DNA of 20,676 nucleotides from a virus. Positions 377 to 4,497 of this stretch are shown in pieces. The notes beneath the pieces are model-generated. The model saw only the letters and a program-made list of their open reading frames with translations, made no database searches and was not told the DNA's origin. Numbering within the stretch: the first letter of the stretch is position 1; each line of letters opens with the position of its first letter. The stretch lies in UHGV virus genome UHGV-0171440; one strand, given 5' to 3'. A program made the position numbers and the translations under genes.

Positions 377-1597
377 TCATGTAATGGTTACTGGCACCTC
401 GACAGATATTCCGTGAATCGGCTCGTTAATCAGTATCTTGATGTTTCCTGACACGTTCTCATCGAAAACAACGTCAAAGACAAGATTTTGAAATATTTGG
501 TTCCGTCGAGATACTAGTGCCTGATGAAAGTAGTTCACAGGCAGATGAAGTGTTGCATTGACCTTGGGTTCAAATGAAATTTCTGGCTCCACTACCGATA
601 CGTATCGTGTTGAAACATCCTGTGGTAAGGATGTTGGGGATAGTTCGATGGTCACCGTTTTCCCGTTGACCTTTACACTCTTCTTCGCAAGAACATTCAG
701 CGGTGAATAGGCGTGATACACAGAAAGGAGAAGTCTCGCCCTGCTTGCCTTGTCAACAATGCTAATAGTCGAAAGCGCATCCCCGCCAGAAGAGTAAGAG
801 GAAACAATATCTACAATACCAGAGTCCTGGGTTATCTTTCGGACTGACAACGTACTGAACCTGTCCTCAAAATCAGTTTCCACCACCAGTTCCGAGAACT
901 GAGCATTCAGCAGGGAAAATGGAACGCTGTAGTGGTAGTTTTTTGTTGCCCTGAACGAATACACAGGGGAAACAAATCTCGGAACCGTTGGATACGCTGC
1001 GGCGGGTCTGTCCAGTTTTGTCGGGTAAGCCGGAACCTTGTAGCCAGCCAGCAGAATATATCTCAACTCGTCGTCTTCGTTCGGTGGATCTATCTCAGCC
1101 ACCTCAACGAGGTTGTAATCATGGTCCTGATTGATAATGGCAACAGGATCACCATAGGCATCAAACCCCAGCAGCTTGTGTTTCCGCTGGTCTACATTTG
1201 GTAGTGGTTCGACTGAAGGCTCAGGAACACGCAGGAAGTGCTTTGTCGCTAAAGCCTTCCCCGCCCCGCTGGCAGGCATAATGTTCGGATAATAGTAAAC
1301 CTGCACATTATTCACGTCATAAACAACCATGCTGTAGGCATCGTCAGTGTAGAACTCAACGACAGCACCGTTATACACACAGTAGCCACCAGAATTAATA
1401 GAAAGAGGCTGTGACACAGGAATGAATTCCCCGCTCTCGTTTTCAATGTAAACGTTAATCTGGTTTTTCTTGATGACAGGGTCTTTGTCAGGCTTACCAA
1501 TATAGATTTGACCATTTGCTATTGGTCTCAGACTGTTTGGATAAGTGAATAACTGCGCAGGGATTCTGACGGCAACGTTTGGGTTAATTGTTGTCAT
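377..1597 (-). CDS. Tailspike / receptor-binding protein (406 aa) with a P22 gp9-like N-terminal head-binding domain and a short divergent C-terminal domain
   Basis: N-terminal ~110 aa (ANGQIYIGKPDKDPV...NQINVYIENESGEF...) resembles the P22 gp9 head-binding domain; the rest does not resemble the P22 beta-helix as I recall it. AGAGG Shine-Dalgarno 5 nt before the ATG. Last gene of the late operon. Confidence 0.8.
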   Translation of the reverse strand: MTTINPNVAVRIPAQLFTYPNSLRPIANGQIYIGKPDKDPVIKKNQINVYIENESGEFIPVSQPLSINSGGYCVYNGAVVEFYTDDAYSMVVYDVNNVQVYYYPNIMPASGAGKALATKHFLRVPEPSVEPLPNVDQRKHKLLGFDAYGDPVAIINQDHDYNLVEVAEIDPPNEDDELRYILLAGYKVPAYPTKLDRPAAAYPTVPRFVSPVYSFRATKNYHYSVPFSLLNAQFSELVVETDFEDRFSTLSVRKITQDSGIVDIVSSYSSGGDALSTISIVDKASRARLLLSVYHAYSPLNVLAKKSVKVNGKTVTIELSPTSLPQDVSTRYVSVVEPEISFEPKVNATLHLPVNYFHQALVSRRNQIFQNLVFDVVFDENVSGNIKILINEPIHGISVEVPVTIT

Positions 1598-1626
1598 AAG
1601 GACCTCTTTAAAACTTTTTTGGGATG

Positions 1627-1650
1627 TAAAAAACCCAGCCGAAGCTGGGT
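1627..1650 (-). terminator. Intrinsic terminator (minus strand) between the antirepressor region and the tailspike gene
   Basis: Read on the minus strand: CCCAGC-TTCG-GCTGGG (6-bp stem, UUCG tetraloop) followed directly by TTTTTT; lies right after the stop of the 73-aa ORF. Confidence 0.6.
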
Positions 1651-1657
1651 CGTTGCG

Positions 1658-1879
1658 TTAGTTATCAAAATGTCCGTACGTTTCTTCTTCTTCAGGTGTA
1701 AGGGGGAGAATCTCGACTCTATCTATAGATACCTTTTCAATGTACCCATGAGGTCTACTTAAAATTAAAGCTCTCTCATGCCACAGAACTCCAAGAATGT
1801 GATACCTTCCAGCATCGCCTTTTACCCTGGCTCTTCCTTTGATTCTTGGCGGCATAATGCCATATTTTTTCTTTGCCAT
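1658..1879 (-). CDS. Hypothetical 73-aa protein, translationally coupled to the upstream antirepressor-like gene
   Basis: ORF whose ATG overlaps the upstream stop (TAATG); no recognisable motif; sits between the antirepressor-like gene and the tailspike. Confidence 0.55.
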   Translation of the reverse strand: MAKKKYGIMPPRIKGRARVKGDAGRYHILGVLWHERALILSRPHGYIEKVSIDRVEILPLTPEEEETYGHFDN

Positions 1880-2607
1880 TATGCAACATTACTCCCATGA
1901 ATCAGGTGTTGTAGTGCTTTAACACCTTCCGCATTGTAGCGGAATGCTTCCACCTGTTTGCTGGAATGCGCAGATTTATCCAGGAAGAACTTCCCGTACT
2001 GCTCAGTTTTGAGGTTGTTTGCGTTAGCAATGCGACCAATCTTGTTGGCCGTTACTCCAAGCTGCTCTGCAACCTCCCCTGCTGAGTAGTAGTGTTCTTC
2101 GATTGCTGGTAGAGGAATTGCATTAAAACCGACTATTGGGTTGATTATGCTTGCTGCCGCAGTCTGCTTTGCCTCAGGTGCAAGGTTAGGCATCAAGTCG
2201 AACAGGTTGGTAACTGCTTCAACTGTCATTTTCAGGGTGCGGGCCTGACGGTACTCAACAAGACCAGTTGCTGACTTCCCGTTCTTGATGTGCGCTTCCT
2301 GCATATTTTCAAGTTTATCTACCAGAGAGCGACGTACCGCCTTAGACTCACGAGCGGCCACGCGGAGCGCCTGCTTGATGGACATATCAATGATGACCAT
2401 CGAAGTTTTGTTCGCTTTTTGCACTACACTTTTTGTGTAGTGCTCCCCATCCAGTTCATCTTCAACTTTCTCGATGAATTTGTTATTGCGAACTTCCGGC
2501 TCACCGCACTGTTTGCGTGCTTCATTGACCATCGCCAGCAGAGACTGGCTATCAATAGTTTTATCCGTGACAACGGATCCGATGTTTGCTACATTCTTCA
2601 AAGTCAT
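1879..2607 (-). CDS. Phage antirepressor-family protein (about 242 aa) with a KilAC/ANT-like C-terminal domain
   Basis: Start set at the internal ATG (MTLKNVANIG...) preceded by AAGGAA-n6; C-terminal region (HYYSAGEVAEQLGVTANKIGRIANANNL...) resembles antirepressor C-terminal domains from memory. The domain assignment is not verified. Confidence 0.55.
   Translation of the reverse strand: MTLKNVANIGSVVTDKTIDSQSLLAMVNEARKQCGEPEVRNNKFIEKVEDELDGEHYTKSVVQKANKTSMVIIDMSIKQALRVAARESKAVRRSLVDKLENMQEAHIKNGKSATGLVEYRQARTLKMTVEAVTNLFDLMPNLAPEAKQTAAASIINPIVGFNAIPLPAIEEHYYSAGEVAEQLGVTANKIGRIANANNLKTEQYGKFFLDKSAHSSKQVEAFRYNAEGVKALQHLIHGSNVA
2567..2595 (+). promoter_or_regulatory. Candidate sigma70 promoter on the plus strand, antisense to the 5' end of the 242-aa antirepressor-like gene
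   Basis: -35 GTGACA (2567-2572), 17-bp spacer, extended -10 TGcTACATT (2587-2595). Confidence 0.35.
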
Positions 2608-2676
2608 TAGGCATTCCTTATGTGGTAGTAAGGGTGTGACATAGGCCGCCAGCAGCACACTGGCGGTTTTCTTTTT
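2602..2676 (+). ncRNA. Candidate cis-antisense RNA (about 75 nt) complementary to the start codon and RBS of the 242-aa antirepressor-like gene
   Basis: Bounded by the candidate promoter above and a canonical plus-strand terminator at 2646-2676; it would cover the complement of the ATG (2605-2607) and the AAGGAA Shine-Dalgarno (2613-2618). Confidence 0.3.
2646..2676 (+). terminator. Canonical intrinsic terminator on the plus strand inside a minus-strand operon
   Basis: 7-bp stem CCGCCAG/CTGGCGG with a 7-nt loop, followed by TTTTCTTTTT. No plus-strand protein gene lies upstream of it. Confidence 0.55.
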
Positions 2677-2695
2677 GCGCCGTCCGGCGCACCAA

Positions 2696-3322
2696 TCAAT
2701 GAATCCATTCCTCGCCGCGCAGTTTTGTCAGCATTGGCTGAGCGTTCTTTACGACAAAATTGTTGGTATCAAGATTCTTCATTTCACGAAGAAGTGATTT
2801 CTTGGTTTCTTCTGACATATAGCGAGTCTCATATGCAATATCGTAAATTCTTCCTGAAAGCTCAGAACCAATTTGCTTCATTCCTGGGTAGATGTGTTTG
2901 CACATTTGTTGACTCTTCTCCATCCACAATTGTAAGTAGCAGAGATTAACCAGTTCTTCGTCAGTAAACTGTTTTGCAATCGGTGAGCATTCTGCCTGCC
3001 GATCCAAAATATCCAGCACCCAGCGGCGGAACTCTTTTGCTACAGGAGTGCGAGCAAACATCGCGATTAGGTGGGCACCGCGTAGTGAGAAAACTCGCAC
3101 TTTTTTGCGATAATTTCCTGAGGTACTCACTTCGAGTACCTGAGTCATTCCGGCGCTAAACTCATCGCTATACTTGTTATAAATCATTGTTACTGCACGA
3201 CTATTTGCGTATTTAAGTGCAGATGCAATATTAGATGATGTAAACCAAACACCATGCATATCACGGGTGGGCGCCAACTCAACTCCGTGGAAGTTGTAAT
3301 CTGATTTTGCTACAATGTTCAT
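2696..3322 (-). CDS. Antirepressor (Ant-like) with a Bro-N domain, about 208 aa
   Basis: Start set at the internal ATG (MNIVAKSDYNFHG...) preceded by AAGGAA-n6; N-terminal half resembles the Bro-N antirepressor fold (…VAKEFRRWVLDIL). The longer ORF in the track runs into the arc-like gene in another frame. Confidence 0.75.
   Translation of the reverse strand: MNIVAKSDYNFHGVELAPTRDMHGVWFTSSNIASALKYANSRAVTMIYNKYSDEFSAGMTQVLEVSTSGNYRKKVRVFSLRGAHLIAMFARTPVAKEFRRWVLDILDRQAECSPIAKQFTDEELVNLCYLQLWMEKSQQMCKHIYPGMKQIGSELSGRIYDIAYETRYMSEETKKSLLREMKNLDTNNFVVKNAQPMLTKLRGEEWIH
3308..3316 (+). promoter_or_regulatory. Candidate extended -10 promoter element (TGcTACAAT) for a sar-like antisense RNA
   Basis: TGn plus TACAAT on the plus strand just inside the 5' end of the Bro-N antirepressor gene; no good -35 (TGGAAG, 3/6). 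Confidence 0.35.
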
Positions 3323-3396
3323 GTTAGTTTCCTTGCATACGGTTACTGACATAGAGGCCCGGTTTGTGTTCGCGCACTGCCGGGCTTCGCTATTTT
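3323..3396 (+). ncRNA. Candidate sar-like antisense RNA (about 70 nt) spanning the antirepressor RBS and the arc-ant intercistronic region
   Basis: Position and length mirror the P22 sar RNA as I remember it; it would cover the complement of the antirepressor RBS and end at a plus-strand hairpin (GCCCGG/CCGGGC, 3357-3385) followed by a T-rich tract. Confidence 0.4.
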
Positions 3397-3398
3397 TA
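3356..3398 (+). terminator. Plus-strand terminator-like hairpin in the arc-ant intercistronic region
   Basis: 6-7 bp GC stem with a structured 17-nt loop, then TTCGCTATTTTTAT. The T-run is displaced 8 nt from the stem, so this is a moderate call. Confidence 0.4.
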
Positions 3399-3563
3399 TG
3401 TCCTAGCATTCTTCTCTCCAATCAGTCCGTACACTTTTCTCAATTGATAAATAAGTTCCGTGTTGAACTGTCGACACTCTTTTTCTCCATTTCTTTCAAT
3501 CGCCTTCCTTACATCCTCTGGGAAACGAACCTTGCGTTGATACATGTCTTTTGCTTTTTCCAT
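3396..3563 (-). CDS. arc: Arc-like ribbon-helix-helix repressor, 55 aa (absent from the ORF track, which only lists ORFs of 60 aa or more)
   Basis: Hand translation of the minus strand gives MEKAKDMYQRKVRFPEDVRKAIERNGEKECRQFNTELIYQLRKVYGLIGEKNART; AAGGAG Shine-Dalgarno 5 nt upstream; strand-helix-helix pattern and position upstream of ant match P22 Arc. Confidence 0.65.
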   Translation of the reverse strand: MEKAKDMYQRKVRFPEDVRKAIERNGEKECRQFNTELIYQLRKVYGLIGEKNART

Positions 3564-3580
3564 CTCCACTCCTTAAATAG

Positions 3581-3593
3581 CCCCACTGTGGGG
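3581..3593. promoter_or_regulatory. Palindromic operator candidate 1 (CCCCACTGTGGGG)
   Basis: Perfect 13-bp palindrome, lying between the predicted start site of the arc-ant promoter and the arc Shine-Dalgarno. Confidence 0.5.
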
Positions 3594-3601
3594 CAGTCAA
3601 A

Positions 3602-3630
3602 ATTGTCACACCGTGCGTCATTGAAGTCAA
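3602..3630 (-). promoter_or_regulatory. Candidate promoter for arc-ant (Pant-like)
   Basis: On the minus strand: -35 TTGACT (complement of 3625-3630), 17-bp spacer, -10 GACAAT (complement of 3602-3607). Confidence 0.4.
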
Positions 3631-3649
3631 CCCCACCGTGGGGCATAAT
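3621..3649 (+). promoter_or_regulatory. Candidate promoter for the mnt-like gene (Pmnt-like), overlapping the arc-ant promoter face to face
   Basis: -35 TTGAAG (3621-3626), 17-bp spacer, -10 CATAAT (3644-3649); the two -35 hexamers overlap within the near-palindrome TTGAAGTCAA. Confidence 0.45.
3631..3643. promoter_or_regulatory. Palindromic operator candidate 2 (CCCCACCGTGGGG)
   Basis: Second perfect 13-bp palindrome, 50 bp from the first; fills the spacer of the mnt promoter and abuts the -35 of the arc-ant promoter. Confidence 0.5.
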
Positions 3650-3686
3650 TTACTTATTGTGAATTTTTCCTGTTTGGACTAATGGT

Positions 3687-4061
3687 ATGAGTAGAGAAGA
3701 CCCTCAACTTCGGATTAGGCTTCCTGTTGAATTAAAAAAAATAATTGAAGCGTCATCAAAACAAAATAATCGTTCTATGAATGCTGAGATTGTCACTCTG
3801 CTTGAGTTGGCGATTCGTGTTTGTCGTGATTTTGGGCCGGAGGATGGTCCTATCGTTCAGCAGTTTAAAGAACAACTAGATGCGATAAACAGAAAATATG
3901 ATAAAATCGAGCATGAAAAACTTATACCTCAACTTTTAGAAATCATAGAAAAACAGAAAAAACAAGTAGATAAACTTATTAGCATGGTTGAAAGATCAAT
4001 TCCTCTTTCAGAGGAATATAAGCAGAAATATCTTGGTGATGACAACAAAAAACCCACCTGA
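3687..4061 (+). CDS. mnt: Mnt-like ribbon-helix-helix repressor with a long C-terminal extension (124 aa)
   Basis: N-terminus MSREDPQLRIRLPVELKKIIE...NNRSMNAEIV aligns with P22 Mnt (MARDDPHFNFRMPMEV...NGRSMNSELL) from memory; divergent from arc-ant as in P22 immI; the C-terminal ~80 aa are K/E/Q-rich and probably coiled coil. Confidence 0.8.
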   Translation: MSREDPQLRIRLPVELKKIIEASSKQNNRSMNAEIVTLLELAIRVCRDFGPEDGPIVQQFKEQLDAINRKYDKIEHEKLIPQLLEIIEKQKKQVDKLISMVERSIPLSEEYKQKYLGDDNKKPT

Positions 4062-4079
4062 CGGTGGGTTTCATTTCTT
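4045..4079. terminator. Bidirectional intrinsic terminator between the convergent mnt-like and lipoprotein genes
   Basis: Hairpin AACCCACC-TGAC-GGTGGGTT flanked by an A-run (4047-4052) on one side and TTTCATTTCTT on the other; the mnt stop codon TGA sits in the loop. Confidence 0.6.
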
Positions 4080-4497
4080 AATCTTGCTTCGTGGAAGGTG
4101 TAAGAGATGCGTTTGCCTCTTTTGGCTTCAAGGTATACATCCCACCATTAAATGGATCAACAGCAAGCCAACCAATTAACCCACCAAACACAAGGTTTCC
4201 ACCAATATACCAACCATTAGCATTGGCTTTGATTGGCAGGGTAACTGGTTCGTACCCATCCTTTTCCATAGTGATCTGGTAGCTCTTTTTGCCAAAATAA
4301 CTACCATCTGACTTGGAAAGAGTTACTCCTTGTGGAGTTTTACCTTGCGCAACAATCACACCTGATTCATCTTTTACCTTAAAGCTCGCACCAGAAGGAT
4401 TGCTGTTCACTTGCACAAGTTGCGTTTCATCACCAACAATAGTTGCGCACCCAGATAACATGATAGCGCCAGCAACGACGCTAATAATCCTCTTCAT
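4078..4497 (-). CDS. Lipoprotein with a PEGA-like domain, about 139 aa
   Basis: Start set at MKRIISVVAGAIMLSGC (signal peptide with lipobox LSGC); mature region has PEGA-like motifs (SNPSGASFKV, GKTP, KDGYEPV) and a Gly/Trp-rich hydrophobic stretch (GWYIGGNLVFGGLIGWLAV). Domain call is from memory of the family pattern. Confidence 0.7.
   Translation of the reverse strand: MKRIISVVAGAIMLSGCATIVGDETQLVQVNSNPSGASFKVKDESGVIVAQGKTPQGVTLSKSDGSYFGKKSYQITMEKDGYEPVTLPIKANANGWYIGGNLVFGGLIGWLAVDPFNGGMYTLKPKEANASLTPSTKQD

Follow-up and report, generated by a model that had tools for sequence, protein, structure and literature searches.

Background

The sar RNA of phage P22 (Rfam RF00262) is an antisense regulator of the ant gene in the immI region, with a length of 68-69 nucleotides (nt) and a layout of TGCTATACT, then ATTCAT, a +1 G and two hairpins; the Rfam model scores 97.8 bits on P22. 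A small RNA also acts on an antirepressor in the immI region of phage P1, where the c4 RNA of P1 and P7 blocks the translation of icd-ant and sets the immunity specificity. Unlike a convergent cis-antisense RNA, c4 is processed from the target's own strand and transcript and pairs via short loops. The locus described here was found in the UHGV virus genome UHGV-0171440, of which the whole stretch analysed comprises 20,676 nt and is referred to as the window. It belongs to the "ant moron" (immI-type region) of a P22-like (Lederbergvirus) prophage, and the closest phage match of the window is Escherichia phage JEP4 (MT740315.1) with about 91% identity. The region contains two antirepressor-like genes on the minus strand, ant1 and ant2, and the plus-strand segment 2567-2676 at the start of ant2, named module 2 here, is likely to be a gene for a sar-type cis-antisense RNA that would repress the translation of ant2. 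That its promoter and terminator together form a real, selected transcription unit is, judging from the comparison of related loci, highly probable.

In P22, sar binds the ant mRNA (PMC11016777), and this binding is credited to Liao et al. 1987 and Wu et al. 1987, as cited in PMC2629481. Module 2 resembles P22 sar in that the promoter is located in the first codons of an antirepressor gene with a TGC-TAx context of the -10 element, in that the predicted RNA crosses the ribosome-binding site, terminates in the upstream intercistronic spacer and folds into two hairpins, and in its position in an mnt/arc/ant operon that is flanked by the DNA-injection genes and the gene for tailspike. It differs from sar in its target, which belongs to PHROG 1726 rather than to the P22_AR_N proteins and is the second gene of the operon in the window, and in its location in the spacer between ant1 and ant2; it directly follows arc only in one locus from Xenorhabdus. 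Moreover, the distance from the end of the -10 element to the end of the CAT is 12 nt in module 2 as opposed to 6 nt in P22 sar and in the sar-like unit of ant1, named module 1. With its -10 element placed 6 nt farther inside the gene, module 2 would give an RNA that also covers the AUG and codon 2. Further cis-antisense RNAs of P22, namely OOP, sas and anti-Q/23as, are listed in PMC13397905 and PMC5415839. The OOP RNA of lambda and P22, sas and anti-Q/23as are, like module 2, short transcripts which end at a terminator and lie opposite a regulatory gene. Unlike module 2, OOP has its overlap at the 3' end of cII and promotes decay, sas governs which translation start of sieB is used, and none of the three targets the initiation region of an antirepressor gene.

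Elements of module 2

The target gene ant2 (1879-2607, minus strand, 242 aa) starts with an ATG at 2607-2605, which is preceded by the Shine-Dalgarno sequence AAGGAA at 2619-2614. On the opposite strand, a -35 hexamer GTGACA (2567-2572) faces codons 12-14 of ant2 and is followed, after a spacer of 17 nt, by the extended -10 element TGcTACATT (2587-2595, with the TG at 2587-2588 and TACATT at 2590-2595) facing codons 5-7. This promoter (2567-2595) had been read directly from the sequence in the initial annotation and was recovered by an independent scan. Transcription is predicted to start at an A 7 nt after the -10 element and to end within a T-run, which gives an RNA of about 73-75 nt at 2602-2676. 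It contains a 5' stem-loop (2603-2640), in whose inner stem the anti-Shine-Dalgarno sequence UUCCUU (2614-2619) is located, and an intrinsic terminator (2643-2676). The stem of the terminator occupies 2643-2669 with the core CCGCCAG (2646-2652) and CTGGCGG (2660-2666) around a 7-nt loop; it consists of seven Watson-Crick pairs, or of ten pairs if an additional A-U and two G-U pairs are counted, six of the ten being G-C, and the T-run TTTTCTTTTT is found at 2667-2676. The 7-bp stem and the T-run up to 2676 correspond to what had been reported for this site.

Both the ATG and the AAGGAA of ant2, arranged as AAGGAA-n6-ATG, are situated between the promoter and the terminator of module 2. By geometry, and with the predicted transcription start site, the RNA spans the start codon (2605-2607) and the complement of the Shine-Dalgarno sequence (2614-2619), as initially proposed, and it is perfectly complementary to the translation-initiation region of ant2. 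A nhmmer profile of the module 2 family matched exactly 2602-2676 and nowhere else in the window.

Conservation of the promoter

The relatives were taken from 80 IMG/VR loci containing ant2 homologues with upstream DNA, from a further 32 ant2 loci obtained from a one-genome-per-species set of Enterobacterales and allies, and from the ant2 regions of the phages JEP4, phiKp_30, KP12 and Erwinia Midgardsormr38. A comparison across related prophages had been suggested in the initial annotation, and it revealed that promoter and terminator are conserved together. The promoter alignment, which was anchored on the start codon, comprises 21 sequences with amino acid identities of 58-100% and about 13 leader types. 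In each of the 21 sequences the plus strand carries GTGACA, 14 variable bases and TGnTAnAnT, with the spacing fixed at 17 nt. The invariant positions of the -10 element are the extended TG, T1, A2, A4 and T6, its end always lies exactly 12 nt from the end of the CAT, and the A 7 nt downstream (2602 in the window) is invariant as well. The spacer and the discriminator vary freely despite being coding.

The promoter bases are retained through replacements of the amino acids they encode. Codon 5 of ant2 specifies Asn or Thr across the 21 homologues with unchanged promoter bases, codon 6 is GTA or TTA (Val/Leu) and therefore always NTA, and codon 7 is GCA, TCA or ACA (Ala/Ser/Thr) and always NCA, which provides the TG of the extended -10 element. 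At Val-13, whose third base forms the centre of the -35 hexamer, GTC is used in 21 of 21 sequences, as opposed to three or four different third bases in each of nine other invariant four-fold codons. These include the adjacent Thr-14, whose third base is located just outside the -35 hexamer and varies freely. In a set of 65 distinct sequences, the synonymous codon entropy amounts to 0.13 in codons 1-15 compared with 0.5-0.86 in every later block. Since the promoter bases stay constant and the encoded residues, the spacer and the base outside the hexamer change, the conservation acts at the nucleotide rather than the protein level, and the pattern is that of a putative promoter overprinted on the reading frame rather than that of a conserved peptide. 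The sigma-70 promoter on the opposite strand within the first codons of the target is thus recognised by conservation rather than by activity.

Conservation of the terminator

In the terminator stem, 96% of the cells are paired and compensatory changes occur at four of the ten pairs, with GCCGATAG/CTATCGGC in Kluyvera, GCCAGCAG/CTGTTGGC in Proteus and ACCAGCAG/CTGCTGGT in an unclassified Enterobacterales genome as examples. The covariation score of the stem was reached by none of 500 shuffles and by no slid register, and the loop is free to vary among the relatives. The G+C-rich hairpin with its conserved structure is directly followed by the U-run, and it lies in antisense orientation upstream of the Shine-Dalgarno sequence of ant2. 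On average, 5.8 of the 8 nt after the stem are T on the plus strand, as opposed to 2.0 on the mRNA strand; because the T-run is present on the plus strand only, the element is a predicted one-way, plus-strand terminator. Terminator-like sites are enriched in the window as a whole, with 11 sites compared with 2.4 expected from shuffles.

The only long open reading frame (ORF) on the plus strand 5' of the terminator is the mirror frame of ant2 at 2290-2610 (106 aa). It was considered as a protein gene which the terminator might serve and was rejected, as stop codons interrupt it in most homologues; the terminator thus has no protein gene on the plus strand to act on, in agreement with the initial reading. 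A second mnt-like gene, found in most relatives, was likewise rejected as the gene served, because it is absent from the window, because the module is retained in phages without that gene, and because other terminator-like sites are closer to it in E. coli 55989. The neighbouring hairpin GCGCC-GTCC-GGCGC (2677-2690) was set aside, as it is not maintained as a hairpin in relatives.

Predicted fold of the RNA

The predicted RNA (2602-2676) folds into two hairpins with -25.1 kcal/mol (z = -2.5), the second of which is the terminator. In the 5' stem-loop, the region complementary to the start codon pairs with GUGAC just 5' of the terminator. As the MAFFT alignment of the 5' stem-loop was structurally inconsistent, each variant was folded separately. 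The fold with two hairpins is predicted for nearly all leader types despite very different sequences, and a comparable 5' hairpin is predicted in most of the approximately 13 leader types, usually closed by GUCA/UGAC or GCAU/AUGU. Because a hairpin in one strand is mirrored in the other, both strands were folded and compared. The 5' stem-loop is more stable in the antisense strand in 23 of 25 variants (-7.5 vs. -3.6 kcal/mol), and its composition-controlled mean z is -1.81 in the antisense strand vs. -0.74 in the mRNA strand. The corresponding mRNA segment of 161 nt is not unusually structured (z = -0.9).

Distribution and association with ant2

Among 110 ant2 loci from phages and Enterobacterales, both elements were found in 95 and neither in 14; one locus has a terminator-like site only, and none has the promoter only. 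The loci without module 2 encode a different N-terminus of ant2, lie behind a sense-oriented terminator and are located outside arc/mnt cassettes. The module is carried by 77 of 5,426 complete E. coli genomes and by prophages of Klebsiella, Serratia, Erwinia, Pantoea, Proteus, Xenorhabdus and others. In E. coli 55989, it is located at about 2,672,170-2,672,280 of NC_011748.1, on the plus strand of that record. In prophage remnants of Arsenophonus, Symbiopectobacterium and Sodalis (L102-L117), there are proteins which share only the N-terminal part of ant2 and start with MQNLMN; upstream of them is a sense-oriented GCCCC...GGGGC terminator together with GTGACA, TACATT and TAAATT-like words, whose spacing is wrong. 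This arrangement could be a decayed or rearranged module 2.

At least seven contexts with different DNA directly after the T-run were found, and the first ant gene upstream of module 2 may encode a Bro-N/P22_AR_C protein, a protein of the P22 Ant type (P22_AR_N), a KP12-type protein or another Bro-N protein. In phiKp_30, ant1 is reduced to a short 3' stub next to an intact module 2. The boundary is found at the terminator itself, as the 3' flank of ant1 ends at the T-run of module 2, and the match of Salmonella phage SPN3UB to the window begins at about 2642-2645, just before the terminator stem, with the terminator hairpin aligned. This phage (L003 2900-3035) carries ant1 and the same terminator, followed by a different antirepressor-like gene of the ORF6N type (gp22). 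The gp22 gene is preceded by a leader of the module 2 type, and its first codons contain TCGACA-17-TGcTACATT, the -10 element ending 27 nt from the CAT; gp22 thus looks like a third target family for such antisense units. In Xenorhabdus santafensis (L113 1600-2560), the ant2 homologue directly follows arc, so that module 2 occupies the position of sar in P22, and the sequence of the terminator stem differs (ACCAGCA/TGCTGGT). Because module 2 stays with ant2 across these differing upstream contexts, the unit is probably best seen as ant2 plus its own antisense gene, forming a recombination cassette with the terminator and T-run as the joint.

As a separate observation, ant2 of E. coli HS (L120 1794-3595) is truncated by an IS3 element and annotated as a pseudogene, and promoter, leader and terminator are retained with 95% identity.

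Comparison with module 1 and P22 sar

Module 1, the sar-like unit of ant1 (3308-3398, plus strand), contains TGcTACAAT, a +1 G at 3323, two hairpins and a T-run. Its layout of TGCTACAAT, GTTCAT and +1 G has the geometry of P22 sar, and its fold of -33.2 kcal/mol (z = -4.9) is in line with the antisense unit initially assigned to ant1. In the SPN3UB counterpart of module 1, the terminator stem is almost the same as in sar, and the counterpart in the Erwinia phage shows the sar geometry, too. With the Rfam model of sar (threshold 43 bits), the window gave no match at the gathering score, and there was none over 1500-4200 at E <= 10. Since the model misses module 1 despite its P22 sar geometry, relatives of sar are under-annotated. 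At a permissive threshold, the only Rfam match was a sub-threshold SymR-like match on module 1.

Module 2 was initially described as a second unit of the same design as module 1, which holds for the motifs and only in part for the geometry. Module 2 shares with module 1 and its counterparts in SPN3UB, Erwinia phage and KP12 the general design, the -10 context TTTGCTACA(A/T)T and the spacing AAGGAA-n6-ATG, the latter two having been noted earlier for ant1 and confirmed in the sequence, and both modules have a TGACATAG..GGCC motif 5' of the terminator. A pairwise alignment of the two modules reaches z = 4.2 against shuffles through the promoter, the anti-Shine-Dalgarno sequence, TGACATAG and the terminator motifs. 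In contrast to module 2 with its distance of 12 nt, the start of module 1 directly follows the CAT, and its terminator belongs to a different family. The further idea of a duplicated control unit found no support, and a local duplication was dropped: the nhmmer profile of module 2, run against the window and the loci of the relatives including P22, gave no link to module 1 or sar, and the pair of ant2 and module 2 also occurs downstream of at least three other types of first ant gene and, in one case, directly after arc. Module 2 is better described, on this comparison, as a second independent cassette of an ant gene and its putative antisense gene than as a local duplication. The proposal of one antisense unit per ant gene was strengthened, with conserved hexamers, a covarying stem, co-occurrence of the elements in all but 1 of the 110 loci, a 5' fold favoured in the antisense strand and a sar-like unit present at ant1 itself.

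The target gene ant2

The protein encoded by ant2 matches PHROG 1726, labelled "anti-repressor", with E = 6e-99, and gave no match in profile searches of Pfam, NCBIfam and PDB. Unlike Ant of P22, it lacks a P22_AR_N domain, and its alignment with gp22 of SPN3UB (an ORF6N-type protein) using hhalign was not significant.

Alternative explanations

Several observations weigh against an antisense gene at 2567-2676. In the single sequence, the promoter match is at the level of chance, with 4 promoter-like sites compared with 4.5 expected from shuffles, and the -35 hexamer GTGACA differs from the consensus. As the match is not significant in a lone sequence, the case for a real signal rests on the relatives, and many of the 95 loci with both elements are near-identical, leaving only about 13 leader types as independent. 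Low synonymous change at the 5' end of a gene can also arise in other ways, for example through translation initiation or recent recombination. In Rfam, no curated RNA family corresponds to module 2 at gathering or permissive thresholds, and the identity of ant2 as an antirepressor comes from its PHROG label and its operon position only. The hairpin and T-run might be a recombination linker or insulator terminator at a mosaic boundary, with an incidental promoter match and no small RNA. The terminator coincides exactly with the mosaic joints, annotations of P22-like phages include conserved boundary sequences, e.g. 'bsq1' of CUS-3, and the chance-level score of the promoter would fit, too. However, amino acid replacements leave the hexamers unchanged, and variation is seen in the spacer and in the base next to the -35 hexamer; no locus has the promoter without a terminator, the two being lost as a pair, and on the plus strand of the window there is nothing upstream for a terminator to stop, which makes this explanation very unlikely.

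The chances are slim that the element acts instead in the sense mRNA, where a leader hairpin and the first codons would tune the translation or stability of ant2 by sequestration of the Shine-Dalgarno sequence and AUG or as an RNase site, with no antisense transcript. Antisense hairpins do have mirror images in the mRNA, 5'-proximal codons are often constrained, and the hairpin lies between two cistrons. However, the 5' stem-loop relies on G-U pairs and is favoured in the antisense strand (23 of 25 variants; z of -1.81 vs. -0.74), the 161-nt mRNA segment has a z of only -0.9, a T-run after the hairpin exists only on the plus strand, and the invariant bases map to the sigma-70 consensus positions of the opposite strand. 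A different possibility is that the RNA is made and has its main role elsewhere, either in trans immunity against phages with the same cassette or in cutting or attenuating late read-through transcripts, which would set the dosage of tailspike. The antisense unit is indeed located in the path of late-operon read-through to the tailspike gene, an influence of the P22 ant moron on the expression of tailspike has been suggested (PMC2629481), and the diverse, cassette-specific leader sequences would provide specificity. We consider such a role unlikely, as nothing specific supports it and as translational control is the simplest reading of a complementarity which, like that of sar, has its centre at the Shine-Dalgarno sequence and AUG.

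Proposed mechanism

For a sar-type antisense gene acting on ant2, transcription would start about 7 nt after an extended -10 sigma-70 promoter embedded in codons 5-14 of ant2. The antisense RNA would cross the complement of codon 2, the ATG and the Shine-Dalgarno sequence, and would stop at the terminator in the spacer between ant1 and ant2. Its pairing with the initiation region of ant2 would block the binding of ribosomes, and the duplex of RNA and mRNA would probably also be a substrate of RNase III. In this way, the synthesis of Ant2 could be held down from the transcript of the Pant operon as well as from read-through transcripts of the late operon. Psar, the promoter of sar, is reported to be stimulated by convergent transcription from Pant. 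In P22, arc and ant are transcribed from Pant and also from P_LATE (PMC12111858), and the late transcript can arrive at the tailspike gene only by way of the ant moron (PMC2629481). Because Arc and Mnt act at Pant and cannot silence read-through, an ant ORF in the late path plausibly needs a post-transcriptional brake, and this need would explain one antisense RNA per ant gene.

A wider proposal is that every antirepressor of a late-operon ant moron is a self-contained cassette of an ant gene and its antisense gene, with the terminator as the joint, so that antirepressors would be stackable and independently gated, and the RNAs would be determinants of trans immunity if made by the prophage. 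We regard this as speculative and rather unlikely in its full extent.

Gene order of the ant moron

The control region of the operon (3396-4061) consists of the arc-like gene (3396-3563, minus strand), divergent promoters and the mnt-like gene (3687-4061, plus strand), which is divergent from the arc-like gene. A Pant-like promoter on the minus strand (3630-3602, TTGACT-17-GACAAT) overlaps a Pmnt-like promoter on the plus strand (3621-3649, TTGAAG-17-CATAAT). In the interval between arc and mnt (3585-3650), the inverted repeats GCCCCACTGTGGGGC and ACCCCACCGTGGGGC are located within and beside these overlapping promoters and are probably operators of the Arc and Mnt type. The arc-like gene is followed on the minus strand by ant1 (2696-3322, 208 aa, PHROG 245, with Bro-N and P22_AR_C domains), ant2, a gene of 73 aa (1658-1879) 3' of ant2, a terminator and the tailspike gene (377-1597).

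The stop codon of ant2 overlaps the start of the 73-aa gene (TAATG, in the region 1847-1881), which suggests translational coupling. The first codons of this gene contain a small terminator-like hairpin on the plus strand (1847-1862), which is probably a by-product of the Lys-rich codons of the gene. A minus-strand ORF of 33 aa (2607-2708) starts inside the 3' end of ant1, crosses the hairpin of module 2 and stops on the start of ant2 (TAATG); it is probably not a gene, because its upstream half consists of the DNA that differs between contexts. In most relatives (E. coli 55989, L121 2408-2662; many IMG/VR loci), the 73-aa gene is separated from the tailspike gene by a second P22-Mnt-like gene in opposite orientation; this additional gene resembles a remnant of a second immI region and is missing in the window.

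Annotation in databases and literature

In the E. coli RefSeq records among the matches listed (60 of 77), no RNA gene is annotated at module 2 and only protein-coding genes are present, and the annotated regions of E. coli strains HS and 55989 contain no RNA gene at module 2. The GenBank records of the phages likewise show only coding sequences (CDSs) at this site, some of which extend ant1-type genes over the sar-like RNA. In SPN3UB (L003 3052-3774) and KP12 (L006 2718-3401), the deposited starts of the ant1-type genes are apparently too far upstream; these over-long CDSs share 11 nt with arc, and the sar-like RNA together with its terminator is hidden inside them. Searches of the full-text literature turned up neither a second sar-like RNA nor tandem antisense units for immI, which supports the earlier remark that such an arrangement had not been described for immI regions. 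Module 2 represents a predicted RNA family new to the databases, of the well-known sar kind.

Significance

The value of the finding lies in the generalisation it suggests and in an unusually clean comparative signal. If the interpretation of module 2 is true, sar would no longer be a one-off of P22, and phage antirepressors would be under antisense control as a general and modular rule. It would add a small-RNA family that is so far unannotated, it would be a clear case of a promoter overprinted on a coding sequence and detectable from codon choice, and it would explain why the mosaic joints of this region fall at the terminator. The comparison also flags annotation errors, as over-long start codon assignments of ant genes hide such RNAs inside CDSs. 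For the biology of these phages, it would mean that an antirepressor gene in the path of late read-through carries its own translational brake, a repressor bound at the promoter being insufficient on its own.

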